From: Candidatus Falkowbacteria bacterium
GTDB lineage: Bacteria > Patescibacteriota > Patescibacteriia > UBA11705
Reading direction: 5' to 3'
Assembly: GCA_003518055.1 (NCBI GenBank)
Contig: DOZJ01000006.1
Span: 43,837 to 107,836 of the forward strand
DNA length: 64,000 nt
Shown here: positions 728-53,400 of the stretch, piece by piece
How positions within the stretch are numbered: position 1 is the stretch's first letter
How the letters are laid out: each line of letters starts with the position of its first letter
Program-made: the position numbers and the translations under genes
Notes under the pieces: model-generated
Told to the model about the DNA's origin: nothing
Seen by the model: only the letters and a program-made list of their open reading frames with translations
Databases searched by the model: none

Positions 728-983
728 AATATTTTTAAAAATAGATTTAGTATAAATAAATCATTTTCGGAGCGGAGAAAACACCATATACCCCTCTTTA
801 ATTAATGAAAAATAAATTTTAAAATTTTTTAAAACAATTGGGCGATAGCCCAAAAAAGAAAAGGAATATTTCAGATCAACTGGTTTCTATCCGAACTTTT
901 GCCGGTTTAACACGTATAATTTGCTGGTTATACGAACTTATGTTATTCTAATTATAGAATTATTATATCATTCGAGTATATTT

Positions 984-1799
984 ATGCAAAATTACCTTCA
1001 ACAGGTGGATGACGAGCTGAAATTGCGTCATTACAGTCTCAAAACCAGAGTGTCCTATTTGCGTTGTGTTCGTGATTATCTAGCTGTCTGCACTATAACA
1101 AAATCGGCTGGAGATATTGAATTAATTAGACAGTTTCTATTAACTAAATACGATAAAAATTACGCCTCTCAGACGGTTAATTTATATCTTAATGCCATAA
1201 AGTTTTTATATCGTGACGTCTTGAAATTACCATTCAAAATTGATATAAAATTCGCCAAGCGGGAGAAGCGTTTGCCGGTGGTTTTAACTCTGGCAGAAAT
1301 ACGATTGATTTTAGATAATATCGTGAATAATAAGCATCGGCTGATGATAGCGATCGCATATGGCGCCGGGCTTCGCGTGAGTGAAGTTCAGAAATTACAA
1401 ATAAAAGATGTGTTGTTTGATGAAATGCTGATCAAAGTCAATTTAGGGAAGGGTAATAAGGATCGATTTACTTTGCTGCCGGAAAAATTGATTGATGAGC
1501 TAAAATCTTTAGTCAGCGGAAAAGAATCTGGTGATTATGTTTTTGATAGTAATCGTGGAGGGAAATTATCAACCCGGTCCCTTGAAAAGGTGTTTTCCAA
1601 TGCCTTGAAGAAAGCAAACATTGCCAAAGATGCTACTTTTCATAGTTTGCGTCACAGCTTTGCCACCCATTTGCTCGAAGACGGGGTTGATATTCGGTAT
1701 GTGCAGGAATTATTGGGACATCAGAATATTCGCACGACGCAAATTTATACGCATGTGACTAATCCCAAGTTGAAAAATATTAGAAGTCCTTATGTCTAG
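984..1799 (+). CDS. tyrosine site-specific recombinase (XerC/XerD / phage-integrase family)
   Basis: C-terminal HSLRHSFATHLLEDGVDIRYVQELLGHQNIRTTQIYTHV (R..H..R..Y catalytic signature); N-terminal SAM-like domain; track ORF 921 trimmed to first ATG at 984. Confidence 0.8.
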   Translation: MQNYLQQVDDELKLRHYSLKTRVSYLRCVRDYLAVCTITKSAGDIELIRQFLLTKYDKNYASQTVNLYLNAIKFLYRDVLKLPFKIDIKFAKREKRLPVVLTLAEIRLILDNIVNNKHRLMIAIAYGAGLRVSEVQKLQIKDVLFDEMLIKVNLGKGNKDRFTLLPEKLIDELKSLVSGKESGDYVFDSNRGGKLSTRSLEKVFSNALKKANIAKDATFHSLRHSFATHLLEDGVDIRYVQELLGHQNIRTTQIYTHVTNPKLKNIRSPYV

Positions 1800-12297: not shown

Positions 12298-13074
12298 TTG
12301 GGAAAAGCCGGGCAATGGGAGGGCCCGATGGAAGAAGGGAAAATGGATAGAGATGGTCGAATTCTAGATAAGACATTGGAGTCATTTGTGAAATGGCTTG
12401 AGGCTCATCCAAGTTATCCCATGGGTTTTTGTTTGCGGGGGTTGTTTGAAATGAGTGAAGGGATGAAGCCCGCTTCAGGCATCGGCAAGGTTCAAGTATT
12501 GCTCACGGGGGCTGGGAGAGCTTTCTATGGGGATGAATCTTTTGATTTGGTTCAACAGTTTTTTAAAACCGCAGTTCTTATGTCTGACTCGTTTACTTCT
12601 GCGATTGATTTTGTCGTGTTTTTGAGGCAAATGATTGATCGGATTGATCAGCGGGAAGCCATTTTGCTGGGTAATAATTTTGAATGGCCGGTCAGGGAGA
12701 CGTTGTTGCTCGCTGTTTGTTCCGGAGTAATGAGAGCATGTGTGGAATTACTGAAGGAGAGAAAGAATGATTTTGATTTTTTGGTAGGTCCTTTCAACGC
12801 TTTGGTTCAACAGGTTATCGCCAGATCCACGTCGGATTCATGTCACAGATGGGTGATTGATGATCTCGGTAACGCGGTGAAAGAATTTTATCAAGTTCTA
12901 TGTCGAAGAGACAAGGCGGCGTATGTAAATATGCGGTCTCGCCTGAAGCAAATTGTTTTGGCTTGTCCTCAGCCAAATTATGGTGTCGTGGCTCAGGAAC
13001 TATTCAAGAGTGTTTTCTATACGTGGGTGACTGAGCAGAGAGGATCGGATCTGATTTTGCTAGTCAATGATTAA
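12298..13074 (+). CDS. hypothetical protein (probable true start ATG 12328) behind GC-rich structured leader
   Basis: 258-aa ORF, no recognisable motif; terminator follows. Confidence 0.4.
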   Translation: MGKAGQWEGPMEEGKMDRDGRILDKTLESFVKWLEAHPSYPMGFCLRGLFEMSEGMKPASGIGKVQVLLTGAGRAFYGDESFDLVQQFFKTAVLMSDSFTSAIDFVVFLRQMIDRIDQREAILLGNNFEWPVRETLLLAVCSGVMRACVELLKERKNDFDFLVGPFNALVQQVIARSTSDSCHRWVIDDLGNAVKEFYQVLCRRDKAAYVNMRSRLKQIVLACPQPNYGVVAQELFKSVFYTWVTEQRGSDLILLVND

Positions 13075-13081
13075 AATAAAT

Positions 13082-13106
13082 CACTGGGAATGAACCAGTG
13101 TTTTTT
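13082..13106 (+). terminator. intrinsic terminator (CACTGG-GAATGAA-CCAGTG-TTTTTT)
   Basis: hand-folded. Confidence 0.6.
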
Positions 13107-13211
13107 ATTTAGATACCCACGCACCAGAACAATGTTCAGTTCGGGGCAGGCAAATTACTAATATTTACGAATATTACAAATTAGATGTGACGGTTATTTT
13201 TGTTGGGTAAA

Positions 13212-14507
13212 CTAATCCTGCGTAGTGGTTTCATTTGTATTATTTGTAACAGATACGTAATTTGTATCTTCAACCTGATTGAAGCACTGGCGGCAAAGCG
13301 GCTCGTATTCACCGGCGCCGCCGATGCCGATTGTTTCCTGCACATCGGTTTTACGGCGGTTTCGAACCGCGTCAGTGCCGCAGCGTGAGCAAATGGCGCC
13401 GAGTTTGGTGACGGATTCCGCCAATGCCAATAGCTCCGGAATGGGGCCGAATGGACGGCTGTCAAAAGTGGTATCGAGGCCGGCCACGATAACTTTGAAC
13501 CCGGTATTGGCTAGATGGTCGCAAATCTGAGGCAGTTGATCATCAAAAAATTGAGCTTCATCGATACCGATAACATCGGTAGCGGTGTTTAAGTGTTTGA
13601 AAATATCTTCAGCGCGGTTGATAATGATTGATTCCATTTGATTTTTGTCATGACTGACGACATGAGTGGCGCTGAACCGCGTATCGAGCGACGGTTTGAA
13701 CAGTTTGACTTTTTTTTGCGCGATCAGGGAGCGTTTTAATCGGCGGATCAGTTCTTCGGTTTTGCCGGCAAACATGGAGCCACAGATGACTTCGAGGCTA
13801 CCGCCGGTTCTTGAGGCGGGAGGCAAAATGGGGGCATCAAGATGGCTAAAAGGCGTTCCGAGCTGCAACAGCGTGCCTACATGGCGCCAGATTTCAAGTG
13901 AAATATCATCGATCGGCTGAGCGGCGTTAATAATTTTCCAGGTATCATTATTTTGGGTTTGATTCAGAAATCCTTGGCGGACCTTGCGATGAAAATCCAA
14001 CTTTTCATTATCAAAGCGGTCATCGGCCAGCGCCCCGCGATCTTGGTTCTGGATAATGCGGTTCAAAGCGACTTCCGGGTCAATGTCGAATAGCAGGGTT
14101 AAATCGGGATCAAAGTCGCCGGTGGCAAAGCAGTTGATGTTTTTTACAGTTTCGAGATCAAATAAACCGCGAGCATAATGTTGGTAGGCTAGAGTTGAAG
14201 CTTGGTAGCGGTCGCAGATGACGATTTTACCCTCATTGATCGCCGGTTGAATGATTTGCCTTACGTGCTGGGCGCGGGAAGCTAGAAATAAAAATAATTC
14301 GGTTTCAGCGGTCATGGCTTTGTGCGCGGGATTTTTGAGAATGGCTCTGATTTCTTCGGCGATGGGGCAGCCGGTGCCTCCGGGTTCTCGGGTAACCAAA
14401 ATATCAAAGCCTTTTTCAGTTAGTTTTTTTTCAAGCACTTTGATTTGGGTGGTTTTGCCTGTGCCTTCGCCGCCTTCAAATACGATGAATTTGCCGTGTG
14501 AGGTCAT
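13212..14507 (-). CDS. tmk-tdk: thymidylate kinase - thymidine kinase fusion protein
   Basis: N-half FEGGEGTGKTTQ...REPGGT (Tmk P-loop/lid); C-half GSMFAGKTEELIRR...VIGIDEAQFF...CSRCG...CRQC (Tdk P-loop and zinc ribbon) in one 431-aa frame. Confidence 0.8.
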   Translation of the reverse strand: MTSHGKFIVFEGGEGTGKTTQIKVLEKKLTEKGFDILVTREPGGTGCPIAEEIRAILKNPAHKAMTAETELFLFLASRAQHVRQIIQPAINEGKIVICDRYQASTLAYQHYARGLFDLETVKNINCFATGDFDPDLTLLFDIDPEVALNRIIQNQDRGALADDRFDNEKLDFHRKVRQGFLNQTQNNDTWKIINAAQPIDDISLEIWRHVGTLLQLGTPFSHLDAPILPPASRTGGSLEVICGSMFAGKTEELIRRLKRSLIAQKKVKLFKPSLDTRFSATHVVSHDKNQMESIIINRAEDIFKHLNTATDVIGIDEAQFFDDQLPQICDHLANTGFKVIVAGLDTTFDSRPFGPIPELLALAESVTKLGAICSRCGTDAVRNRRKTDVQETIGIGGAGEYEPLCRQCFNQVEDTNYVSVTNNTNETTTQD

Positions 14508-14582
14508 AGTGGTGGTTGAACAAGTAATTACATTTTAAATAAAAAGAGAGCCTCAGCCCTCCTTGGTTGTTGCCGATGGGTC

Positions 14583-14894
14583 TTAATTCTCGATCACTTC
14601 CTCGAGAAAAATACGTTCGGAAAAACCGCCGCGTTCTTCCAGTTTGTTTTGGCGCAGGCGTTCGATATCGTTGATGGTCATTTGATGGTATTCTGACAGA
14701 GCGTGGATAACTTCGATAATATCGGCTAGTTCTTCCGGGTCGTCGTTTTCCAGGTAGTCCTCGACTTCTTCTTTGAGTTTGTCCTTTAGCGCTTCAAAAT
14801 ATTCTTCTTGTTCCAGGATTTTGGTTACGGCTTCGTCGCCGTTGTCTTCAATCATTTGGGGCACGAGATCGCGGACGAGTTTATTGGGGCGCAT
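14583..14894 (-). CDS. MazG-like nucleoside triphosphate pyrophosphohydrolase (small all-alpha type)
   Basis: KLVRD..P....E......EEY...L..KL.EE..E......EELADI.EV..AL pattern typical of MazG/PRA-PH-like proteins; trimmed to Met at 14894. Confidence 0.5.
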   Translation of the reverse strand: MRPNKLVRDLVPQMIEDNGDEAVTKILEQEEYFEALKDKLKEEVEDYLENDDPEELADIIEVIHALSEYHQMTINDIERLRQNKLEERGGFSERIFLEEVIEN

Positions 14895-15753
14895 AATTTT
14901 GTTTTGATTTTTGGAGGTTGTGATAAATCGTGGGCGTGGCGGTTTTGACCAGCGGCCACAAGTCAGCAACCACGGATGAATTTAAACCTAACAATTGATT
15001 TATATTTATAGTAAATATCACTTTGTGTTGAAATGCAAGAGGAAGAAGATAGCAGGCGTATGTGGATAAGTCTCCGGAAATTTTGGAGAAGGCGTCGAGG
15101 GAGCGTTTCATGGTCATAACATAGGTGCTGAGCAGGCCGGAATTGACGATTTTTTCGGGGGTGTGGTAGCCAAATGTTGGATTGACCGGCAGCGTGATAA
15201 AGGCTTGGAAGTTGTTGGTTTTCAATTGTTCCAGTTCGAGAAAATTGACGGCGGTTTCAAAAGTATACGATAGAAAATCAAGTTCGGGATAAGATTGATG
15301 GCCGGTAAAGTATTGATTCAAAATGTTTTCTTTTTGTTCCAAGGTCAACATTTTTTGGCGCTCAATAATTTTTTCGTATTTGAGTGGGGTGAATTTTTGA
15401 AACAGAATTCGGACCAAATCGGTTTCTTCTTCCGGGTGTTTAATTATTCGCGTTTCCGGCTTTGATGGCCGCTCAAGCGGGAAATATTGGCTCAGATAGG
15501 ATTCGTATTGCGCGTGATTGGCTGTTTCCGGGTCAATGATGAAATTCGGGTGATAGGCGTGGGGCAGCAGCAGGTCGGTTAGCGGATCGTCAGGAAGCTC
15601 ATTTGTGATCAGTTTGTGCTGCGCCAAAATAAAGTCGATTGTGTCGCGAAATAAAAATTCATATTCCGAATGTCGCAGGGCGGAGAGGTGGTCGGGGAAA
15701 TAATTATTTTTTATGGCTTCGATGGAAATCATGGGATTAGCCGGTTGAACCAA
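14881..15753 (-). CDS. hypothetical protein conserved inside dTTP cluster
   Basis: 290-aa ORF, not ThyX (no RHRxxSxxxxSxR), no P-loop; unknown function. Confidence 0.4.
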   Translation of the reverse strand: MVQPANPMISIEAIKNNYFPDHLSALRHSEYEFLFRDTIDFILAQHKLITNELPDDPLTDLLLPHAYHPNFIIDPETANHAQYESYLSQYFPLERPSKPETRIIKHPEEETDLVRILFQKFTPLKYEKIIERQKMLTLEQKENILNQYFTGHQSYPELDFLSYTFETAVNFLELEQLKTNNFQAFITLPVNPTFGYHTPEKIVNSGLLSTYVMTMKRSLDAFSKISGDLSTYACYLLPLAFQHKVIFTININQLLGLNSSVVADLWPLVKTATPTIYHNLQKSKQNYAPQ

Positions 15754-16165
15754 AGCCGCCGCGTGAGGCGGCTGATATTTGATCGGTTTCGATCAAAGCG
15801 GGTTTGGCAATTTTAACGAGTAAGGCTTGGCCGATCCGATCGCCGCGGGGAACAGTAACTGGTTCGGTAGTAAAATTATAGGCGGCGTAGCGGATTTCAT
15901 CGTCGTCGCCGCAAAAATCTTGATCAATAATTCCAATACCGTTGGCACACATGAGGCCTTTTTTGAGCGGTGTGCTGCTGCGCGAGGCGATTAGGATCAC
16001 GTAATCGTCTGGGACTTTGATAATTAAATTAACCGGAATCAAGGCAATGCTATGCGGATCGATGACGGTTTCAACCCGGGCGTAGAGATCAAAAGCAACC
16101 GAACCGGCGGTTTGATATTCGGGCAGGGGCAATGTTTGGTCGATGCGTTTGATTAGTAATTCCAT
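15737..16165 (-). CDS. dut: dUTP diphosphatase
   Basis: AGSVAFDL, GIIDQDFCGDDDE, C-terminal RGGFGSTG motifs. Confidence 0.85.
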   Translation of the reverse strand: MELLIKRIDQTLPLPEYQTAGSVAFDLYARVETVIDPHSIALIPVNLIIKVPDDYVILIASRSSTPLKKGLMCANGIGIIDQDFCGDDDEIRYAAYNFTTEPVTVPRGDRIGQALLVKIAKPALIETDQISAASRGGFGSTG

Positions 16166-16197
16166 GTAAAATCGGGGTTAACAAGGGAAGTCAAGGG

Positions 16198-16749
16198 TTA
16201 TTTTTGATATTTTTTAATTAGATTGTCCAATGCGGTTTGAAGGTCGGAAATCGTACCGTTGTTATCGAGTTGGATATCAGCTTTTTCGCTGACAACGGCA
16301 ATCAGTTTTTCGGCTTCCTTTTCATGATCAGCCAAAAATTGGTTGAAAGTTTTGTCTTTGTCATCGGTTTTTTCCGAGCGTTGAACTAATCGTTGGTAGC
16401 GGGTTTTGATATCAGCAAAAATGTGGATCAAGACAAAGCCATCAAGTGGTTGCAGCAGTTCAATGTCTTGCGGCCGCCGAATGCCGTCAACACAGATTAT
16501 GGCAGCGCGGTCGGTTTTTACATCGCTGGTCAGGACCTGCGCCAAAATGTCTTGGCCGAAAGTTTCTCTCAGCATTTGTGAGGTTTGTTGCAGGTGGTCG
16601 CGGTCAGCGGGCAGGTGGAGCCGATTAACAATATCAAAAAGTGGCGTGGAAAAACGATAGTATCCAGCCTGATATTTTTTTACGATATGATCGCAGGCGC
16701 TGCCTTTGCCGCTGGCGATCTGGCCGACAAAGCCGAGGATGAGTTTCAT
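16198..16749 (-). CDS. P-loop nucleotide/nucleoside kinase (dNMP-kinase-like, exact substrate unknown)
   Basis: Walker A GQIASGKGS at N-terminus, ~180 aa, embedded in deoxynucleotide cluster. Confidence 0.5.
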   Translation of the reverse strand: MKLILGFVGQIASGKGSACDHIVKKYQAGYYRFSTPLFDIVNRLHLPADRDHLQQTSQMLRETFGQDILAQVLTSDVKTDRAAIICVDGIRRPQDIELLQPLDGFVLIHIFADIKTRYQRLVQRSEKTDDKDKTFNQFLADHEKEAEKLIAVVSEKADIQLDNNGTISDLQTALDNLIKKYQK

Positions 16750-16800
16750 AGTAGATACAAATTACGAATATTTACAAATATTACAAATTACGAATTAATG
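16750..16800 (-). promoter_or_regulatory. T(T/C)GTAAT x4 array directly 5' of P-loop kinase start (no SD)
   Basis: minus-sense TTCGTAATTTGTAATATTTGTAAATATTCGTAATTTGTATCTACT-ATG. Confidence 0.5.
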
Positions 16801-16806
16801 GTAGGT

Positions 16807-17379
16807 TTATATAATCCATTTTATATCTTGTGGTCGGACGTTTTCTTGTTTGGCTAGTCGGAGTTCAATTTCTTTCATCAAGGCGATACGTTTTTCGCGG
16901 GTGAAAATCTGATCGGCGTTTTCTACCAGAAAGACACGTTTAAGGCCGAATTTAATTATATGATTCCAGCAGTTTTCACACGCCCACCAGTGGCCGAATA
17001 AATACAAGTCAGCGCCGGCCGGATCAGCGCCGAGCGCGATGGCGTCATCAATGGCCGCCACTTCGGCATGAGATGTCTGCTGGCATTCGTTCAGGCAAAG
17101 TTCATAGCCGGTGCCGGTCGGGCAGTTGTTTTTGTAGCGGGGGCATAATGGTACGAAGCGGCCGGCATTGGAACCGCGGCCAATGATTTTTTCTTCTTTG
17201 ACCAAAACCGCGCCGGTCGGCCACCATGAGCAGGCGACTTTGTCTTCGGCTGCTTGTTTGGCGGCAATCATAAAGGGATCGTCGAGCGGCACAAAGTGGA
17301 AAATTCGGCCGGTTGGTAAATATGGATATTCTACTGTTGCGGTGAACTTGGAGGGGGAATTTTGGTCAATAATTGCCAT
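16807..17379 (-). CDS. dCMP deaminase (cytidine/deoxycytidylate deaminase zinc-binding family)
   Basis: HAEVAAI ... WACENCW zinc-ligand motifs. Confidence 0.8.
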   Translation of the reverse strand: MAIIDQNSPSKFTATVEYPYLPTGRIFHFVPLDDPFMIAAKQAAEDKVACSWWPTGAVLVKEEKIIGRGSNAGRFVPLCPRYKNNCPTGTGYELCLNECQQTSHAEVAAIDDAIALGADPAGADLYLFGHWWACENCWNHIIKFGLKRVFLVENADQIFTREKRIALMKEIELRLAKQENVRPQDIKWII

Positions 17380-17414
17380 TGAGGTTGGAGAGGCTGTTAT
17401 TAGGGAGGTTGGAG

Positions 17415-18062
17415 TTAGGTTTTTTTTTTGAGTTGATCAAGATTACCGGATCGGAGAATATCAAGTTCAGCGTGCGAGTCCAGCTTGCTGGTTAGCCCGT
17501 ACGGCGTGGCGCTGTCATATTTTGAGGCGTCGAGTCCATGCATTTGGGCGTCTTCCGTGGACATATCGGTTTGCAGTTCGTGTAGAACCATTTGACACAG
17601 CCGTTCTCCGGGATAAATTTTCAAGACATGGTGAGATTGATTGGTAATCGGGATGGTCAGGTGGCCGGAGTAGTGGGGATTGACAACCCCGCTTTCAATC
17701 GCCAAGCCTCGGCGAGAGGCTGAACTTCTGGCGTGCAGGACGCCGCAGAGTTTGCCGCTCAGAGTGACCTTTTCCAAGCTGGAGGCGAGGATCATTTCGC
17801 CGGGGAGAATTTCAAAATATTGTTCGGGTTTTAATTTTACCAACTGGAAATTTTCGTGCGTAGTGGAATAATCCATATAATCGGCCACTACGGCGACGCG
17901 GCCTTTGTCGGTGAATTTCCAGATATAGGGAATGTAAAAACTCCAGCCGATGCGAAGATCGATGGACGCCGGCTGTAATTGATATTCATCCAATTCCGGT
18001 TCGATTTTCAGCTCTTGGGCGGTAATTTTTTGGAGAATGGCCGGCCGGGTTAAAATTGACAT
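17415..18062 (-). CDS. dcd: dCTP deaminase
   Basis: SIDLRIG, LHARSSASRRGL, GVVNPHYSGHLT motifs. Confidence 0.8.
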   Translation of the reverse strand: MSILTRPAILQKITAQELKIEPELDEYQLQPASIDLRIGWSFYIPYIWKFTDKGRVAVVADYMDYSTTHENFQLVKLKPEQYFEILPGEMILASSLEKVTLSGKLCGVLHARSSASRRGLAIESGVVNPHYSGHLTIPITNQSHHVLKIYPGERLCQMVLHELQTDMSTEDAQMHGLDASKYDSATPYGLTSKLDSHAELDILRSGNLDQLKKKT

Positions 18063-18141
18063 AATGGTTGGGGTTAATGTTTATAAAAAGTATACAGTAT
18101 ATGTGGGTGAACGGTAAAGGCGAAATTAGAGAGTGTAGTAT

Positions 18142-18170
18142 TTGACAATGTTTTTATTTCGTGTTATAAT
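18142..18170 (+). promoter_or_regulatory. sigma70-type promoter TTGACA-17-TATAAT
   Basis: perfect consensus. Confidence 0.65.
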
Positions 18171-18205
18171 TTTGGGGTTAATGTCCAAACAACAGGAGGG
18201 TGGCG

Positions 18206-18670
18206 GTGGCAAAGAAAGAGGTTGTTTTCGGTCCATGGCGAGGGGTTCTTTATCCGGATGAAGGGAAAAATTTGTCATCTGGGCGAGTTCAGGGGAATTT
18301 GCGCAAGGGATATGATTTTGTAGCTTTGACTTATTCGGAGAAATTGGATTTGACCAAAGGCTGGTCGCGCCGGATGTCATATCATAAGGGCTATGTCGGC
18401 CGGGTGACTTATGGCACAGTCTTCTATACCCGAAATCAAGATCTGAAGCGATTGCTGGCTCAGGTACGTTACCGTCATTACGGCGGATGTCCGGGACCGG
18501 AGACGGAGAATTTTTTCCGGCAGGACGGTCAGTACGGCGTTTCGACCTTCTGTTCATTTTCGAGAGATTATCAAGATTTGGTTCGCCAGATCATTCAGAT
18601 GTTTCCGGAGCTTCAGACTCCGGCTGCTGGCCAGACGGAACAAGCGTCGACGGCGACAACGGAAGCTTAA
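18206..18670 (+). CDS. hypothetical protein (GTG start)
   Basis: ORF behind perfect promoter 18142-18170 and AGGAGG RBS. Confidence 0.4.
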   Translation: MAKKEVVFGPWRGVLYPDEGKNLSSGRVQGNLRKGYDFVALTYSEKLDLTKGWSRRMSYHKGYVGRVTYGTVFYTRNQDLKRLLAQVRYRHYGGCPGPETENFFRQDGQYGVSTFCSFSRDYQDLVRQIIQMFPELQTPAAGQTEQASTATTEA

Positions 18671-18863
18671 TGAGCTTCTTTTTTATTTTTACTCGCCAAA
18701 GGACGAGTCTGTCCTATGGCAGACAAAATTAAGGGATTATTTTTTACAAAAATTCAACATCTGGTTTGTTTTTTTTGTAAATACTGATTATTGATAATAT
18801 TGATTTTACTGTTATACAGCTGGACAATAAATGGGAGATGTTGTTTATTGCTGGTCAGCTTAT

Positions 18864-19373
18864 TTATTTTTTTATGCGGTAAAGGACATTGATCGTGTGG
18901 TCGTTTAATTTTTCGCACGAAATTAATTCCAAAGCAAGATCCAAATTCAGTTGGTCAACAAAACGCAGTCCGGAGCCAAAAATTTTCGGTTCGATGGTGA
19001 TTTGGATTTCATCAACCAGACCCGCTTCCAGAAATTTTGAATTGACAAAAGTCCCGCCGCCGATGATGACGAATTCAAATCCGCGGTGTTCCAGGTCTTG
19101 GAGGATGGTTTTCAAGTCGCCGCGTTTGTATTCGAGTATTCCCGGTTGATCTTGGTGTGTTTCATCTCGGGTTAATACAATGTTCAGCCGGCCGGGTAAT
19201 GGCCGGCCGATGGCTTCGTACGTGCTTTGGCCAAAAATCATCACGCCGGCTTCGGTGGTGATTTTTTTGTATAATGCCTGATCTTCTTTTGAGGTCCATT
19301 CCACCGGATTGTGATTGGAGTTTTTGGCGATCACGCCGTCGAGGGACATGACCATGATAATTCTAGTTTTCAT
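18864..19373 (-). CDS. dihydrofolate reductase family protein (RibD C-terminal-like fold)
   Basis: MSLDGVIA...IFG..TYE...PLPGR..IVLTR...F..IIGGG pattern; adjacent to thyA. Confidence 0.6.
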   Translation of the reverse strand: MKTRIIMVMSLDGVIAKNSNHNPVEWTSKEDQALYKKITTEAGVMIFGQSTYEAIGRPLPGRLNIVLTRDETHQDQPGILEYKRGDLKTILQDLEHRGFEFVIIGGGTFVNSKFLEAGLVDEIQITIEPKIFGSGLRFVDQLNLDLALELISCEKLNDHTINVLYRIKK

Positions 19374-19420
19374 ATTGCGAATATACTAATGTTATGAATA
19401 CTACGAAAACAAAATAAAAC
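19374..19420 (-). promoter_or_regulatory. TTCGTA-type repeat leader 5' of DHFR-like gene (no SD)
   Basis: minus-sense TTTTCGTAGTATTCATAACATTAGTATATTCGCAAT-ATG. Confidence 0.4.
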
Positions 19421-19466
19421 GGGACGGGTTGTTTTTGTAAAATTAGTAATCATTCGTTAATTTGTA

Positions 19467-20297
19467 TCACAGAACGATTTTCATGCCTTTGATGGGCGGC
19501 ATGGGGGCGTATTGTTTTTCCAGTTTATCAACGATTTCATAGACCAGACTTTCATCACCTTGTTCCGCTCGGGCAAAATATTCCGGCTGGGCTTCGAAGT
19601 AAATCGGCGAGTGAGTGTTGTTCCGCTCAACCAATTCCCAAGCGTGTTCATAATGGATGTCGTAGATGTGCGCGTTGCTGATTGAGTGGGTTAATTTGCC
19701 GGGCTGGACGCCAAGCCGAGCGGCCAGAATACATTGGAGGAGAGCAAAGCCGGCCACATCATGAGGGCAGCCGAGCATCATATCATTGCTGCGAACAATG
19801 CTGTGTATATGGAGTTTGTTGCCGATAATGTTGGCGGTCCAGGTGTACGGGCAGGGGACATTTTTTTTGGTTTCCGGATTACCGAGTCCATCCTCGCGCG
19901 GATCCCAAGTAATTACAACTCCGTGGCGAGAGCCCGGGCTGTCTTCAAGATGTTTGATCAATAATCCCAGTTGATCGCGGCCAAAGGCGCTGCGCCACCG
20001 ATGGCCATAAGCGGCCGGAATGGTGCCGTCTTGTTCCGTAAAAGCATCCCAGATTTTGGTGAATTTGCCGACAAACTCATCGGGTTTTTGGCTGCCCATA
20101 ATATACCAAATTTGTTCAGCGACAAAAATTTTAATCGGAATTTTTCGCAGGGTTAACAATGGAAAACCTTGATCCAATTCAAAAGTCAATCCGGGAATGA
20201 TTTTGGTGCTATGGCCGGTTCTCTCATTATACTCCTCAAATCCCTGATTCATAATCCGGAGGATGGCGTCTTTGAATTGTTGGTCGAATTGAGTCAT
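19467..20297 (-). CDS. thyA: thymidylate synthase
   Basis: PLLT.RK, VPCPYTW (active-site Cys), HIHSIVRSNDMMLG.PHDV, ISNAHIY motifs. Confidence 0.85.
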   Translation of the reverse strand: MTQFDQQFKDAILRIMNQGFEEYNERTGHSTKIIPGLTFELDQGFPLLTLRKIPIKIFVAEQIWYIMGSQKPDEFVGKFTKIWDAFTEQDGTIPAAYGHRWRSAFGRDQLGLLIKHLEDSPGSRHGVVITWDPREDGLGNPETKKNVPCPYTWTANIIGNKLHIHSIVRSNDMMLGCPHDVAGFALLQCILAARLGVQPGKLTHSISNAHIYDIHYEHAWELVERNNTHSPIYFEAQPEYFARAEQGDESLVYEIVDKLEKQYAPMPPIKGMKIVL

Positions 20298-20303
20298 GAG
20301 GGG

Positions 20304-20342
20304 GAGAGATTGAGAGAATTAAGAGATTGAGAGAATTAAGAA
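20304..20342. repeat. microsatellite (GAGAGATTGAGAGAATTAA)x2 immediately upstream of thyA start
   Basis: direct inspection; related array at 61733-61787. Confidence 0.6.
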
Positions 20343-20520
20343 TAATCACTTAATCTCTAAATCAGCTTAATTTCTTTATTTCTTGTTTCTTCATTTTAGC
20401 AGATACAACCCAGCTGGCAAAATCGGGCTTGTGGATTGGAATTCTTTATAAATAAGACAAATTGACAACCATGTTTCTATGTGTTATTGTTTGCTGTTGC
20501 CACCAAAGGAGGGGAAGGAA

Positions 20521-20811
20521 ATGAAACAGGCATTGAAAGCTATTTTCCCATATATGTATAGTATGGGATATCAGGTAAATAATGGTGAGCCGTTTGAAGT
20601 TGAAGAACCGGTTTTGATTTTACAGTATGACGATGGTCTTCGATTGATGCTTAGAAAAAGCCAAAAAGGTGGTATGACGGTGGAAAAAATCGGCCGAGTG
20701 AAATTTGGCAAGCTGCGACGGAAGATTGAAGTTGAAGCGCCGGAATCCTTGTGGTTAATGGTTCGAGGATGGTTTGACGGTTCCTTTGAAATGTTTTTTC
20801 TTAGCGATTGA
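20521..20811 (+). CDS. hypothetical protein
   Basis: ORF with AAGGAGGGGAAGGAA RBS; no motif. Confidence 0.4.
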   Translation: MKQALKAIFPYMYSMGYQVNNGEPFEVEEPVLILQYDDGLRLMLRKSQKGGMTVEKIGRVKFGKLRRKIEVEAPESLWLMVRGWFDGSFEMFFLSD

Positions 20812-20867
20812 TTTTGGTGTCAAAAAATATCAGGGAAAGAGAGGCCACATGAAAGCCGTAACCGCGA

Positions 20868-21089
20868 GTGCTCATTTTACATCCAATACATGATCTTGGC
20901 AGAAAAGGAGAGTGGATTCAAGAAGAAGGGTTCAATGTGAGGTTTGAGGTCAAGAAACTGAAGCTCGTGGATTTTAAACAGTTTGAGGATATTCGTGAGG
21001 TGAATGTTCCTGCGTGGCTGTTTGAGATGGCCAAAGCCGCGGCAGAAGGATTCTTCGGAAGCATTGAGAAACAGTTGAAATTGGAATAA
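20868..21089 (+). CDS. hypothetical small protein
   Basis: 73-aa ORF followed by strong terminator. Confidence 0.3.
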   Translation: MLILHPIHDLGRKGEWIQEEGFNVRFEVKKLKLVDFKQFEDIREVNVPAWLFEMAKAAAEGFFGSIEKQLKLE

Positions 21090-47443: not shown

Positions 47444-50400
47444 ATGGTGAAGATGAAAAAAAGGTTGGTGATATTAACCGGAATATTATTTATTTTTGTT
47501 TTTGGCGTAAGCTTTTTTTTAATTGATCGGACGGAGGCGTTGGTAACAAATGGCGCGAACGCGGTCAATCTGGTTGGACAGTATAGTGACGCGGGTGCGG
47601 TTGATTATACAAAGTCGGGAATCAATAATGGTCCGAATAATGAGGGGGTGAACACGCCGAATTTTTCGATTTTGGATGAACAAAATGATATATTTTTTGT
47701 TATTGATCAGGCGAATAATCGAGTGCTCGGTTATCAAGTGGATGCGGGGAATAATTTTGTTGATTATCAAGCCGATTATGTTCTCGGTCAGACGGATTTT
47801 AGCTCGGCGGATGAAGCAGATTCAGCCACGCAAGCAAATTTTTCCAATCCGAGCGGCTTGGCGATCGATCAGGGTGGCAGTAGGTTATTCGTGGCTGACG
47901 CCGGATTTAATCGAATTTTGATTTTTAATACTGACAGCATCGCGACCAACATGAATGCCAGTTTTGTTTTGGGGCAGGCTAATTTTACCGCGTCTGAGGC
48001 GGCTACGACGCAGGCCGGTTTGAGTTCACCGGAAGGGATTCATTTTGATGAAACTGATAACTTGTTGTATGTCGCGGATAAGAGCAATAACCGCGTTTTG
48101 ATTTACAGCGTGGCGGTCGGGACGGTTTCTAATGGTATGACTGCGTCGTATGTTTTGGGGCAGGCTAATTTTGTAAGTTCAGGGGCAGCGACTACTGCGG
48201 TGGGCTTGTCTGGTCCGACTGATGTTGATTACGCGAGTGATAATGATCATTTGTTTATCGCTGATGAAGGTAATAACCGAGTGATTATTCATAGTATTAC
48301 TCTGGAAGCTCCAATTGCTGACGGCCGGACGGCTGACAAGGTGTTTGGCCAGAGCAATTTTACATCTGGTGGCACTGGTAATGGGGCGGATCAGTTCAGT
48401 TCGCCATTTAGTGTGGCGGTTGATATTGCGAATGATCGGTTGTTTGTGACTGATCATGGTAACACGAGAATTCAATCTTTTGAGATTGCCACGATTGACA
48501 ACACGGAGAACGCGGCTGCTTCTTTGACTAGCATGACATCAAAAGCTCTGTTTTACATGGGTGTCAATGAATCGTTGGTGGTTGGTGAGCTTGAAGAACA
48601 TCGGGTGGCGAGGTATGACGCGGTGGTTTTGACACCGGGAGAATCGCCGGTAGAGGTTATTGGTCGAGTTGATGGCAGCGGCGATGATATTATTTCGGCT
48701 GATAATAACGCTAACAACGGCGCGAATAAATTGGGTTTGAGTGTTATTGGTGGAAGCGCGATTGATACCACCAATCATAGATTATTTGTCAGCGACACCA
48801 GTCATGATCGAGTTTTGGTTTATAATTTGACCGCTGGTGATATTTTGGCTGATTATACGCCGGATAATATTTTGGGCAAGACGGATTTTTATGACGCCAG
48901 CCAGACTGTTGTGACAGGATTGAATCCAGAGCAAAAAATTACTCAGCCCGGAGCTTTGGTTTATGAACAAGATACAAATTATTTATATGTGGCTGATAAT
49001 CGGCGGATTTTAGTCTTTAACGCGGCCAGTATTACTGACGGCGAGGCGGCGATAAATGTTTTGTGTCAAACCGCGTTCGCGAATATGGTTGACTCAACGG
49101 GGCAGGCTGAATGTTCGTCAGTCTCGGGTTTGGCCATAGATGAAACCAATAATCGATTGTTTGCTTCAGACGCCAGTGTCAGCCGCGTGATGGTTTTTGA
49201 CGTGGCGGAAATCGTTGATGGTGAAAACGCCACATATGTTTTGGGTCAGGGGCATTTCGGTGGTAGCGGAGTGGCTACGACTCAAGCAGGTTTGTCGGCG
49301 CCGAAAGGGTTGGCGTATGATTCAACGCAGGAGTATTTATTTGCCGCTGACAGCGGCAATAACCGAGTTGTTGTATATGATGTGGATACGATTTCCAATG
49401 GCGAAGACGCAGCCGCGGTTTTGGGGCAGGTTAACTATACTTCGTCCGGGGCTGATACGGATCGTAATTCTTTGAGTAATCCTTCGGCCGTTAGTGTCGA
49501 TACTAGCAATGGGCTGCTTCATGTGGCTGATACCACTAATAATCGGGTATTGTTTTTTGATGTTAATACTATTGCCAATGGTGAGTCGGCTCAATATGTT
49601 TTGGGCCAAAGTGGTTTTACAACCGCTACGGCCGCGACCACCCGGGCCGGTTTGAATACGCCGACAACGATTACTTTTAACTCTGGTTCGGATCGGATTT
49701 TGGTTGGAGATTCAGTCAATTATCGGATTATGGCGTTTGACGCGTCAATGACGACGAATAATGATCCAGCAACTCCGACTTTGAGCTCTCCGGCTGATTC
49801 AGCTGCCAGTGTGGCGATCAGACCGACGTGGCAGTTCTCGGCCACCGACGCTGATTCTGACGCCTTGTATTATGAATTGGAATTATCGGATACTACGACA
49901 TTTTATAATGTATTGTATCGGTTTGATTTGCGTGAAGATTATAAAGGATGGTCTCAGGTGTCAGCGTATGATTCTGGGGCTAGCGCGTCATTTATTCTGC
50001 CGGTCGGGGCAGCGCTTTCAACCAACACGACTTATTACTGGCGAGTGAGGGTGATTGACGTTCAGGGCGGCGTGTCGAGCTACAGCTCAGTGCGCAGTTT
50101 TACCACGGTGGATAATAGTACCACGGTTGATTACGCGGACACATTTGACAGCTCGGCTTATTTGGATACAACGAATACTACCGCGAAATATTATGATAAG
50201 GAAAATATTTCTATCCCCGCCACCTTTACTATAGGTTCGGCCGCAGCTATGTTCGGGGCGGGGGAAACAGTCGCGATGGTGGCTTTTGACGCGGATAATG
50301 ACGGTGATATCGATGTGGCGGTAAAAAATGAAGCTGGCACTACTAGTACCGTTTATATGAATAACGGCTCCGGAGTTTTTAGCGGCGGTGATACGCTCAA

Positions 50401-53400
50401 CGATTCAGTGGAGTCGGACAGGGCTTATATGGAATTTTTGTTCGCGGCCGATGTGGAGCTTGATGGTGATTTGGATATATTGGATCGTGACGGTTATATA
50501 TATACAAATGACGGCAGCGGTAATTTTACGGCGACAGACGGTCCTGATACTGGCGCGATTGGTGATTTTAATAATGATGGCTATATTGACGTGGTGGAGC
50601 CGAAGGCTGGTGGTGAGACAAAATTCATTTATATTAATGACGGCGAGGGTAATTTTACGGCGCTGAGTCCCAATCCCTTCGCGGATATTTCGGCGGACGT
50701 GATAAGTGATGCGTATGTTTTTGATATTGATCGCGACGGTTGGCTTGATATTGTCACGAATAATCAGAGCGGAACCAGCCGATTGTTTTTGAATGATGGG
50801 GATTTGACTTTTACTCAGAGTACACCGTGGGCAGCGGCAAATCTTACAAGGGTGGAGTTTGCGGATTTTGACGGCGACGGAGACATTGATTTGTTTGGAT
50901 TGCATCAGGGAATTGGTAAGGGTGTGTGGTTTAATGATGGCACAGGGTTGTTTTCGTCAAGAAATGCGGTTTCGACTGATTGTTATTTCCAAAATTTACA
51001 TTCGGTGGACTTGGAGGGTGACGGTGATCAAGATGTTTTGTGCGCGAGCGGAACCGCTACGAATTATTATTTGAGAAACAAAGGAAATGGAACATTTGAA
51101 ACTCAGGTGGCGGCTTTTGGGTCCAGCGGCACCTCAACTATCATTACCGCAGACGTTGATGGCGACGGAGATCAGGATGTTTTGGTTGGTAATGGTGATG
51201 GTGGTGAGAACCCGGTGGTCAATATTCAAAATTATTTATACAAAACAAGCGCGAATAGAATAATCTCGGCGACAGCTTTGGATGCGGATACAAATGTCAG
51301 GGCGGCTTTTGATTCAGATAATGACGGTGATGTTGATTTGTTTGCGACCGAGACGGAAAATGATTCAGGGCGTTTGTGGATCAATGATGGCGACCAGTCG
51401 TATACCGAACAAACGGGGTTTTCGGATTATGTATCCACGTTAGAGGCCGCGGATGTGGATGGTGATGGAGATCTGGATATGGTAGAGGGGCTTAATGGTT
51501 TTAGTGATAAATTGTGGCTTAATAACGGCTCCAATTCATTTACCAATATGGGGACGTTGTTTGGCGCCAATGATTATAACGCCACAGTAATCAAATCCGG
51601 AGATGTGGATAATGATGATGATATTGATTTCCTCTTTGTGTATGAATCTCAAATTCCAGAGATTTGTTTAAATGATGGCACCGGGTTGGTTTATACTTGT
51701 TCTAACGTGGATACATCAAGTTCGGATACCCGGACAGGGGCGGATTTTGGCGATGTGAATAAAGACGGTGTATTGGATTTGGTTATTAATTATGAATCAA
51801 ATGTAGTTAAGGTCTATACCGGTGATGGTGATGGCACATTCACCAGTTCGGCGACAATTTCATCGGATAATGGTCGTCTGGATTTGGGTGATTTGGATAA
51901 TGACGGGGATTTGGATTTTTTGGTTGGCACCGGCACGCCCGGAATGACAGCGTATTTGAACAACGGCAGCGGTAGTTTTGAATCCGGAGTTTCGATCACA
52001 ACGTGCGGCAACCGCGGATATTCTTTGGTTGATATGAATCGTGATGGCAAATTGGACATCTTGATCGCGTGCAATTCGGGGAATTCTCAACTGTGGGAGA
52101 ACCACGGCTATATGAGTTTTGTGAAACAGGCGTCATTGCTGGCTGACGGCGGCACAGTTAAATATTTTGTCTCAGCTGATTATGATCTTGATGGGGATAT
52201 GGATGTTTGGTCGGTTCGAGATGAGGCGGGCGCGGAAAACGGCTATCGTTTTGATCAAAAACAAACATATACGGCCAGTACGGAGTATTTGGTTTATTCG
52301 GGGACGATTGACACGGCGGTGGCGGCGAATACGTTCAAATCTGCAATTTTGTCTTCTGATGATTATACTCCCAGCGGAGCGAGCATTTTGTATTATATGG
52401 CCACTCAAGGGGCTGATTATCAATGGCTTGTAAGAAACGTAGGGACGACAGCTAATTTGTACGCCACGGCAGTCTATGGCTCCGTTGATGAGGCGGCTTA
52501 TGGCGATGTGGTCGGATCATCAGGGGTTTATTACAGTACGGCGGATACCGGAGCGACTTGGTCGAATACGAATTTTGGGATTACTGAGACGATTTTTGAT
52601 ATTATTGCGGTAGTTGAGGATGCGCCTTTATTTGTCGGGGCGAGTGGTTTGGTTTATGACGCCGGTTCAGTCACGGAAACTTGTTTGTCTGGAGAAGTTC
52701 GGATTACTGGTAATAATTTAAATGATTTATCAAATTATGTGTCGGGTGAAACGACCAAGGCGTACGCGGTTGGATCCGCTGGCACGGCTATTGGAATCGA
52801 TTTGTCCGGTTATCCAACGATTGCGTGTTCGGCCCTGACTACCGGCGTGGCAACCAATTTGAACGGAGTCGATATTATTGCGGGTGATCAGACAGATATT
52901 GTGACTGTTGGTGATCGGGTTGATGGCGGCAATGGTTTGATTCTGACGTCGACTGATAATGGTGCCAATTGGACGGTCCGAGCCAGTGGAGTGGCTCAAA
53001 ATTTGAATGCAGTTACGGCCGATACGGCGTCCGGTTTGATGATTGCTGTTGGCGATGGTGGTACAATAATCCGATCCACCGATTCCGGAGTGAACTGGAC
53101 AGGCGTGACTTCTGGTACGGCAGAAAATATCAATGATGTTATATTTAAATTTGAAGATTCAACAGAAGTTTGGGCGGCCGCTGATAACGATAAAGTTTTA
53201 TTGAGTACTGATTCAGGCGTAACTTGGACTGTAATCAGCACCTTATCCGGCGTCGATTGGTATGCCGTGGCTGAAAAAGACGGAGCGGTGTTTGTGGCCG
53301 GAGAGGCCGGCAAGATGATTGTCTATGATGATTACGCTATTTCATGGGAGGGACCGATTGTGAACGGTAATAATTTGAATTTTGGCGATGCTGGAACCAT

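Follow-up and report, generated by a model that had tools for sequence, protein, structure and literature searches.

All cells are taken to form thymidylate (dTMP) from deoxyuridine monophosphate (dUMP) through ThyA or ThyX, and this synthesis is a major drug target. To our knowledge, only phages have been shown to use a methylate-then-deaminate route, in which deoxycytidine monophosphate (dCMP) is turned into a 5-methyl-deoxycytidine (5-methyl-dC) nucleotide and then into a thymidine (dT) nucleotide. Here we analyze a cluster of pyrimidine nucleotide genes around a thyA homologue in Candidatus Falkowbacteria, a member of the Patescibacteria or candidate phyla radiation (CPR). The stretch analyzed, referred to below as the window, is 64 kb of the genome, and coordinates are window positions. 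Judging from its sequence, there is about an even chance that this operon supplies thymidine nucleotides by methylation of dCMP, followed by deamination to a thymine nucleotide and phosphorylation by Tmk, with Tdk serving salvage and Dut and a MazG-like protein serving sanitation.

The real phage parallel to this cluster is the 5-methylcytosine (5mC) module of Xp12- and PaMx74-type phages. It consists of a ThyA-family dCMP methyltransferase with Asp177 (residue numbers are those of E. coli ThyA), a 5mC-selective deaminase of the CDA family, a dihydrofolate reductase (DHFR), and an upstream pyrophosphohydrolase or HAD hydrolase. The substitution N177D or N229D turns a thymidylate synthase (TS) into a dCMP methylase, shifting its specificity from dUMP to dCMP (PMC8670742). 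In the metagenomic association study MetaGPA, positions 177 and 147 were the two that best discriminated ThyA homologues of cytosine-modified viral contigs from those of unmodified ones, and the co-occurring domains were PRA-PH and dCMP-deaminase/MafB19 (PMC8670742). 5-Methyl-dC was made by the Xp12 enzyme and by five of seven metagenomic ThyA homologues that had been predicted from position 177 to act on dCMP, and deaminases encoded by neighboring genes convert 5-methyl-deoxycytidine triphosphate (5-methyl-dCTP) to thymidine triphosphate (dTTP) (bioRxiv 10.1101/2024.12.05.627091).

Two other systems resemble the cluster in part. It shares its families, folate logic and end product, dTMP, with the canonical ThyA/DHFR cycle fed by dCMP deaminase or by Dcd plus Dut; however, N177, H147 and Q165 of ThyA and the Glu of Dcd are replaced in the window proteins, and the order of methylation and deamination would be inverted. 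The precursor set of phage T4, which comprises gp56 dCTPase, gp42, the deoxynucleoside monophosphate (dNMP) kinase gp1, cd, td, frd, and tk, likewise diverts deoxycytidine nucleotides through an Asp-type ThyA-family enzyme that is accompanied by a dNMP kinase, a deaminase, a DHFR and a thymidine kinase. Unlike that set, the window enzyme is predicted to methylate rather than hydroxymethylate, no glucosyltransferase is present, and the context is cellular rather than viral.

The ThyA homologue and its phage relatives

The gene from which the argument starts is the following.

19467-20297, minus strand: ThyA-family enzyme of the Asp177/Pro147/Val165 type, 276 aa, predicted dCMP C5-methyltransferase (5-methyl-dCMP synthase); Pfam Thymidylat_synt, E=1.5e-48

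The protein has the TS fold (PF00303) together with its catalytic residues; Cys146, Glu58, Arg21, Arg166, Ser167, Asp169, Tyr94, His207, and Tyr209 are all kept. Its score against the NCBIfam ThyA model TIGR03284 is 107.1 bits, just below the cut-off of 108.35, and other ThyA models score far below theirs. In HMMER alignments with solved ThyA chains, RSNDMMLGCPHDVAGF of the window protein aligns to RSADIFLGVPFNIASY, which places Asp at Asn177, and “VPCP” stands opposite “PPCH”, which places Pro at His147. MAFFT alignments put Val at Gln165 and Phe at Trp83. The canonical trait of Asn177 with its Gln165/His147 hydrogen-bond network is therefore absent, with Asp, Val and Pro found instead.

Asp at this position is also found in the dCMP hydroxymethylase (dCH) of phage T4, whose hallmarks are the lack of a C-terminal tail and the handling of water by Ser94 and Asp145 (PMC6400193). 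Neither hallmark is seen in the window protein. It keeps a TS-like C-terminal tail (PIKGMKIVL vs HPGIKAPVAI), and it has Ala (position 93) and Asn where T4 dCH has Ser94 and Asp145, as does the Xp12 enzyme. Because the tail is kept and the two dCH positions read as in Xp12, methylation with release of dihydrofolate is the predicted reaction.

These residues are not peculiar to the window. Among the nearest 120 protein clusters (66-97% identical), which come from Falkow-, Kuenen-, Uhr-, Parcubacteria and others, Asp177 is present in 120 and the PCP motif in 119. We also compared loci of GTDB species representatives of Patescibacteria (54-88% identical), which are designated L010, L013 and so on; the locus of the closest relative is designated L005. 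One row of the residue table, CPR_L058, is to be disregarded because the wrong open reading frame (ORF) had been picked. Asp177 occurs in 80/80 of these species-level homologues, PCP in 76/80, and position 165 is other than Gln in all or nearly all of them. Many GTDB records with this typical Patescibacteria operon (L012, L014-L016, L023, L024, and others) are titled “uncultured Gammaproteobacteria” or “Candidatus Saccharibacteria”, titles that look unreliable for taxonomic conclusions.

With the Xp12 enzyme, the window protein shares 37% identity (E=9e-46), compared with 26% for E. coli ThyA. In a neighbor-joining tree, a simple distance tree that carries no support values, the CPR and Xp12-type phage clades are sisters, with canonical ThyA and td outside and T4 gp42 further out. 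F83, P147, and D177 are common to both clades, as is a hydrophobic residue at position 165, and the window protein also resembles the phage enzymes in an EDGLG insertion. Among phages, it matches best to siphoviruses whose module reads pyrophosphohydrolase or HAD hydrolase, ThyA, dCMP deaminase, DHFR; the protein of one such phage, ZQG1, shares 69% identity with its Xp12 counterpart and 74% with that of PaMx74. A pattern search of IMG/VR returned no close relative of the CPR ThyA with the patterns used. The gene is listed simply as thyA in a study of Patescibacteria (PMC12455944), and our literature search found no paper that notes Asp177 in Patescibacteria ThyA.

The sequence and neighborhood features that mark an Xp12-type dCMP C5-methyltransferase are thus found in the window: Asp177 with Pro147, grouping with the Xp12 enzyme, and deaminase and DHFR genes as neighbors. 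The likeness extends to the ThyA/deaminase/DHFR triad as a whole, with a DHFR of the RibD_C type in both. There are also differences. The window module lies on a cellular chromosome and is conserved across many Patescibacteria classes, its deaminase has no detectable BLAST-level similarity to that of the phages, and the operon adds Dut, a Dcd-like protein lacking the catalytic Glu, a dNMP-kinase-like protein, a degenerate ThyX, and Tmk-Tdk. Its likely purpose is thymidylate supply, not DNA modification.

Deaminase, DHFR, and Dcd-like protein

The genes for these three proteins are the following.

18864-19373, minus strand: dihydrofolate reductase of the RibD_C/DHFR type, 169 aa; Pfam RibD_C 9e-19, DHFR_1 8.9e-16; 27% identical to Xp12 DHFR (E=2e-10)
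17415-18062, minus strand: Dcd-family protein lacking the deaminase catalytic Glu, 215 aa; Pfam DCD 2.7e-27 (96 bits), TIGR02274 103.2 bits (cut-off 92.8)
16807-17379, minus strand: zinc deaminase of the CDA/dCMP-deaminase family, 190 aa, predicted deaminase of 5-methyl-dC nucleotides; Pfam dCMP_cyt_deam_1 2.6e-12, MafB19-deam 1.2e-8

Neighbors were counted in the 54 Patescibacteria loci whose flanks reach 3 kb or more to either side of the ThyA homologue. Within 3 kb of it, a DHFR gene is present in 53 loci and a CDA-family deaminase gene in 48; a Dcd-like gene is found in 24, Tmk in 16, the P-loop kinase in 15, and Dut in 14. The DHFR link fits a reaction that produces dihydrofolate. The link with the deaminase fits either order of steps and by itself decides between neither reading. 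No canonical ThyA or ThyX was found within 10 kb on either side in any of the 80 loci.

The HAE and CxxC motifs of the deaminase are intact, and its best solved relative is the dCMP deaminase of S. mutans (2hvv, E=1e-6). Deaminases of this family can be triphosphate-specific (PMC12697855).

The Dcd-like protein passes the thresholds of the Dcd family hidden Markov models, and the solved structures nearest to it are those of bifunctional dCTP deaminase-dUTPases. It retains Ser111, Ser112, and Arg115, and its D-x-x-Y-x-G motif reads as in dUTPases. The position of Glu138, which we take to be the catalytic Glu of E. coli Dcd (our literature search found no citable paper for this role), is occupied by Pro in the window protein and in 38 of the 39 homologues from such clusters, where the solved enzymes read “ITLELSN” or “VLEFYN”. 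With Glu absent, a dCTP-to-dUTP branch is doubtful. In the window protein and two other Falkowbacteria, Asp128 is also replaced, by Asn. The gene is not a pseudogene, a status ruled out by purifying selection; its product is 85% identical to its orthologue and as conserved as ribosomal protein L11. From these residues, the protein is probably not a dCTP deaminase, and it may instead hydrolyze deoxynucleoside triphosphates or act as a nucleotide-binding partner of the zinc deaminase. In L005 (7764-8972), as in L006 and L007, a Dcd-like protein is fused with a CDA-type deaminase in one polypeptide of 402 aa. This fusion in the closest relative suggests that the Dcd-like protein and the zinc deaminase work together physically.

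The rest of the operon and its chromosomal setting

The full cluster consists of nine minus-strand genes that span 13212-20297, with gaps that are short or overlapping, and one plus-strand ORF (18200-18670) that splits the DHFR-like gene from the dcd homologue. Both the ORF map and family scans of the window proteins against Pfam, NCBIfam, and PHROG bear out this arrangement, which an earlier sequence-only reading of the DNA had described. The scans uphold the family labels Thymidylat_synt, DHFR_1/RibD_C, DCD, dCMP_cyt_deam_1, P-loop kinase, dUTPase, and, in one ORF, Thymidylate_kin plus TK. The same reading saw in the cluster almost the whole dUMP/dTMP pathway, which holds at the level of families but not at that of residues, since “thyA” and “dcd” deviate at specificity or catalytic positions. 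The remaining members are as follows.

16198-16749, minus strand: P-loop nucleoside-monophosphate-kinase-like protein, 183 aa; phrog_139 deoxynucleoside monophosphate kinase 3.8e-16, NF006226 5.9e-19
15737-16165, minus strand: canonical trimeric dUTPase, 142 aa; TIGR00576 106.8 bits (cut-off 102.55), PRK00601 105.3 (103), Pfam dUTPase 4.2e-21
14881-15732, minus strand: degenerate ThyX-fold protein, 283 aa; from profiles, hhalign, and AlphaFold/Foldseek
14583-14894, minus strand: putative MazG-like all-alpha nucleoside triphosphate (NTP) pyrophosphohydrolase, 103 aa; from tblastn homology and acidic motifs
13890-14498, minus strand: thymidylate kinase domain, residues ~4-206 of a 431-aa fusion; TIGR00041 187 bits (cut-off 83), P-loop GEGTGKT, DRY motif
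13269-13811, minus strand: thymidine kinase domain, residues ~233-413 of the fusion; NF003296 242 bits (cut-off 183), P-loop GSMFAGKT, DEAQFF, two CxxC zinc motifs

The P-loop kinase is closest to phage dNMP kinases and archaeal AdkA-like proteins; it also matches the N-terminal half of NF041025 (3.9e-8) and the AdkA-like structure 3lw7 in the PDB (2.7e-7). Its phrog_139 match agrees with the proposal that this extra kinase resembles those of phages. A dNMP-kinase-like gene is present in 21/80 clusters. The MazG-like protein gave only noise in searches of Pfam and NCBIfam, by phmmer against the PDB, and with a 3-sequence profile. With tblastn, it is 41-49% identical to plasmid genes that PGAP names “nucleoside triphosphate pyrophosphohydrolase” and matches a “house-cleaning noncanonical NTP pyrophosphatase” of a Vibrio phage, and the acidic motifs EEVE...EELAD are visible in its sequence. 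These named genes support the MazG-like label that it had been given. Its length, in line with orthologues and most gene calls, is 103 aa rather than the 128 first assumed. In an iterative search of all loci compared, the gene appeared only in three Falkowbacteria lineages.

All operon genes are under purifying selection, as judged from nonsynonymous and synonymous differences (pN and pS) against orthologues; pS and dS are saturated in this comparison, and pN and pS are therefore given instead of dN/dS.

The protein upstream of the MazG-like gene had been noted as an unassigned 290-aa member of the cluster. It is indeed an odd member inside the operon and lacks the RHR motif of ThyX, but its ORF most likely starts at Met8, giving 283 aa in agreement with orthologues and most gene calls, and it can be assigned as a degenerate ThyX-fold homologue. 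NCBI annotates it as a hypothetical protein, and a word-indexed protein search with it found only 2 clusters. An exhaustive profile search of 1.84 billion proteins yielded a close family of 7 full-length representatives, whose profile then matches genuine Thy1/ThyX proteins (E=2e-14 to 1e-11). One family member passes the Pfam Thy1 cut-off, whereas the window protein scores 17.6 bits vs a cut-off of 24.8. When aligned by hhalign to a 15-sequence ThyX alignment, the family matches over residues 84-278 with a probability of 99.8% (E=1e-27); searched by sequence against solved structures, the family profile gave no match. An AlphaFold model built from the 8-member family alignment, which was used in place of a 2-sequence alignment that gave a predicted local distance difference test score (pLDDT) of 31, reached a pLDDT of 77.6. 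Its top PDB match in Foldseek is T. maritima ThyX (1o27; E=3e-6, probability 1.0, TM 0.50/0.63).

The protein thus has the fold of ThyX (Pfam Thy1) and its profile homology, and it retains the GY-x-x-P and Y-x-x-P-x-A...FT-x-N segments, whereas the RHR motif and the arginines that bind dUMP and FAD (flavin adenine dinucleotide) are missing. The RHR position reads a non-conserved “TNN”, the NLRE arginine is gone, and a 12-residue deletion takes out the HF-x-x-LR segment of the HF-x-x-LR...RR stretch. Against its L005 orthologue, pN is 0.18 and pS 0.76 (saturated), and this purifying selection rules out a pseudogene. The protein is best described, on its sequence and modeled fold, as derived from ThyX and no longer able to bind dUMP canonically; its role is most likely that of a non-catalytic partner or a nucleotide or folate binder. 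A novel nucleotide-processing activity had been thought conceivable for it, but a ThyX relative lacking the substrate-binding residues is not an obvious candidate for a new fold or activity. Kuenenbacteria and Parcubacteria-type genomes have longer (330-376 aa) and even more divergent ThyX-like ORFs, also lacking RHR, at this position directly ahead of tmk (L013 12286-13413, L014 6987-8027, L016 13048-14049, and L017 13067-14059). Given these ORFs, the degenerate ThyX is older and more widespread than the 283-aa family.

The last gene of the cluster joins thymidylate kinase and thymidine kinase. Its ORF (13212-14507) is uninterrupted, and both domains are full length, score above equivalog cut-offs and have intact motifs. 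The identical protein is encoded by 7 contigs (the longest of 353 kb) that stem from four or more independent samples, and orthologues with the same fusion are present in four further lineages of Patescibacteria (L005, L010, L016, and L017), which rules out an assembly artifact and establishes the fusion as genuine. It is also rare, in keeping with the earlier impression that the arrangement is not a standard one. Both domains are present in only 2 of the best 120 clusters out of 2533 matches, namely the fusion itself and one 50%-identical relative, and in 3/80 species-level Patescibacteria loci (L010, L016, and L017). L013, L014, and L022 have tmk and tdk side by side as two genes; the fusion therefore arose from neighboring genes. 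Compared with the fusion of L005 (11198-12478), the Tdk half is ~85% identical, whereas the Tmk half is only ~25% identical and of a different Tmk type; with L010 (14863-16122), the pattern is reversed. Among the fusions of close relatives generally, one half is 75-85% and the other 25-50% identical, and two Tmk types occur at the N-terminal position. Since one module has been swapped while the fused architecture was kept, these sequences argue that the fusion itself is selected.

The cluster is chromosomal, in a CPR bacterium. It lies between the housekeeping genes for SecE/NusG/L11/L1 and for GatB, and GyrB, FtsW, RF1, PrmC, Lgt, L25, and MiaA are encoded elsewhere in the window. Diverged relatives keep the cluster between NusG-L11-L1 and GatB, and this placement rules out an origin as a prophage or genomic island. 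A gene for a tyrosine recombinase of the phage integrase family (921-1799, plus strand) lies beside miaA near the start of the window. Further away, a 3206-aa ORF (47444-57064, plus strand) with FG-GAP, NHL, DUF11, and Ig-like repeats probably encodes a giant surface protein as in episymbiotic CPR bacteria. Between the fusion gene and gatB is a 258-aa ORF (12298-13074, plus strand) with no Pfam match, for which every independent assembly has a gene call of 243-248 aa; at its place, L005 has different unannotated genes and a bAvd/23S_rRNA_IVP-type gene (L005 15997-16353), which hints at a diversity-generating retroelement nearby.

Two further elements concern transcription and the strand break in the cluster.

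20393-20420, minus strand: promoter-like site upstream of the ThyA homologue and possible operon promoter; TTGCCA-16-TAAAAT with extended TG, 10/12 matches, by consensus match only
18200-18670, plus strand: conserved divergent ORF, ~154 aa; no Pfam, NCBIfam, or PHROG match

Hairpins that resemble terminators by consensus match only follow the MazG-like gene and the Tmk-Tdk fusion. The former, a hairpin with a T-run (14543-14564, minus strand), falls within the 75-bp gap between the two genes. The fusion gene may, on this sequence pattern, be transcribed or attenuated apart from the rest of the operon. An Rfam scan of 12900-20900 found no RNA family and no riboswitch, even at E<=1; the 800-bp gap in the operon holds a protein-coding ORF and no RNA gene. 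L005 carries an orthologue of this divergent ORF in the same location (52% identical), and phmmer found no copy in the 80 Patescibacteria loci, including the Falkowbacteria locus L010. Just upstream of it is a perfect promoter match (TTGACA-17-TATAAT, with TG) at 18142-18170, and a terminator-like hairpin with a T-run at 18661-18679 comes right after its stop.

Weighing the routes to thymidylate

Of the routes considered, a methylation-first model is the best supported, because the ThyA homologue has a cytosine-type site and is sister to the clade of proven dCMP methylases, the Dcd homologue lacks its Glu, and the ThyX homologue lacks RHR. In such a model, dCMP would come from salvage or from pyrophosphatase action on dCTP, in which the MazG-like protein, the Glu-less Dcd-like protein, or both may take part. 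As its residues and its homology to the Xp12 enzyme suggest, the Asp177 enzyme would use methylene-tetrahydrofolate to convert dCMP to 5-methyl-dCMP and dihydrofolate, and the adjacent DHFR would regenerate tetrahydrofolate. The CDA-family deaminase would then convert the 5-methylcytosine nucleotide to a thymine nucleotide, either as the monophosphate or, after action of the P-loop kinase, at the triphosphate level. The Tmk domain would phosphorylate dTMP, and the fused Tdk would feed salvaged thymidine into the same step, possibly with channeling. Dut would remove deoxyuridine triphosphate (dUTP), and the ThyX-fold and Dcd-like proteins, which selection maintains, would probably be non-catalytic partners or repurposed nucleotide binders.

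Several points weigh against this model. Substrate choice is deduced from three residues and from a characterized homologue of 37% identity, and two of the seven metagenomic ThyA homologues tested gave no 5-methyl-dC (bioRxiv 10.1101/2024.12.05.627091). Adjacency of deaminase, ThyA, and DHFR is also expected of a route from dCMP through dUMP to dTMP, and gene order is silent on the order of steps. A link between the CPR deaminase and the published 5mC-selective deaminases was sought and could not be made: there is no BLAST similarity to the Xp12 deaminase, and tblastn against 50,697 phage records gave no match. A canonical Dut is present, and the dUMP that it produces has no consumer in the scheme. 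The cell would need a means to exclude 5-methyl-dCTP from its DNA or to tolerate it there, and the scheme shows none. Finally, our view covers 64 kb of the genome, and a canonical ThyA or ThyX may be encoded elsewhere.

Some of these points lend weight to the ordinary route, in which dCMP deaminase and/or Dcd plus Dut provide dUMP, the ThyA homologue works normally despite Asp177, and DHFR recycles the folate. On this view, the cluster would be no more than a compact set of housekeeping genes, with a Tmk-Tdk fusion specific to the lineage and two relics in decay. Every family of the canonical pathway is present, including a canonical Dut, the ThyA catalytic residues and the TS C-terminal tail are kept, and the Patescibacteria literature treats the gene as thyA (PMC12455944). 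Even so, we consider this route rather unlikely. Asp177, Pro147, and a residue other than Gln165 are invariant or nearly so in 80 species-level homologues, and these are the positions that separate dCMP from dUMP enzymes by experiment and by metagenomic association. In addition, the closest outgroup of the ThyA homologue is the clade of proven dCMP methylases, its score lies under the NCBIfam ThyA cut-off, and the Dcd homologue lacks the catalytic Glu.

A third possibility takes the phage parallel further: the P-loop kinase would help to make 5-methyl-dCTP, 5mC would replace part or all of the chromosomal cytosine, the deaminase would divert some of the pool to thymidine, and pyrophosphatases would deplete dCTP. 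The same module of Asp177-type ThyA, deaminase, DHFR, and pyrophosphohydrolase does occur in Xp12/PaMx74-type phages, whose DNA has 5mC for all C, and a dNMP-kinase-like gene in 21/80 clusters could provide the triphosphate. The Glu-less Dcd-like and MazG-like proteins could be dCTPases, and a replacement would escape notice because Illumina and other short reads show 5mC as C. We nevertheless regard such genome chemistry as quite improbable. The kinase is absent from most clusters, there is no sequence sign of dCTP exclusion, and our literature search found no report of global 5mC in Patescibacteria. We also know of no cellular organism that replaces cytosine fully; if this reading were true, replacement of a base ahead of replication would be seen for the first time in a cellular organism.

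That the ThyA homologue is a T4 gp42-like dCMP hydroxymethylase, and the cluster a source of 5-hydroxymethyl-dC nucleotides, is very improbable. The Asp at the 177/179 position is as in T4 dCH, but the TS C-terminal tail is kept and Ala and Asn stand at the positions of dCH Ser94 and Asp145 (PMC6400193). The window enzyme has a far closer relative in the Xp12 methylase than in gp42. A hydroxymethylase, moreover, releases tetrahydrofolate, which would leave the DHFR neighbor in 53/54 loci unexplained.

Phage thymidine hypermodification starts from a dUMP hydroxymethylase and also involves enzymes that modify 5-hydroxymethyl-dU once the DNA has been replicated. That the cluster works in this way, a likeness drawn by the sequence-only reading, with the “290-aa” protein, MazG, and the extra kinase processing 5-hydroxymethyl-dU derivatives, is extremely improbable. 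All that speaks for it is a superficial resemblance, in that a MazG-like gene and an additional P-loop kinase occur together. A hydroxymethylase of the dUMP type (Asn177) is lacking, the ThyA homologue is of the Asp177 type with a TS-like tail and an adjacent DHFR gene, the “290-aa” protein is a degenerate ThyX, the cluster lies in a housekeeping part of the chromosome that is conserved among Patescibacteria, and Pfam, PHROG, and NCBIfam scans of the window proteins found no hypermodification enzyme families.

Returning to the methylation-first model, we consider what the cluster means for these bacteria. The ThyX-like and Dcd-like proteins are two clear cases in which catalytic residues have been lost while selection continues, and the Tmk-Tdk fusion has persisted through exchange of one of its modules. 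The module around the ThyA homologue is present in no fewer than 80 Patescibacteria lineages at species level, which belong to many candidate classes, and, as far as residues and gene neighborhoods can tell, a phage-like route to thymidylate appears to be the probable rule across this large bacterial radiation. If that is true, the tight linkage of deaminase and DHFR to the ThyA homologue would be explained, and the question would arise of how these cells keep 5-methyl-dCTP out of their DNA, or whether they do. Metabolic reconstructions of CPR bacteria, in which the genes are now simply annotated as “thyA” and “dcd”, would change, and a very large bacterial radiation would make its thymidine without dUMP.

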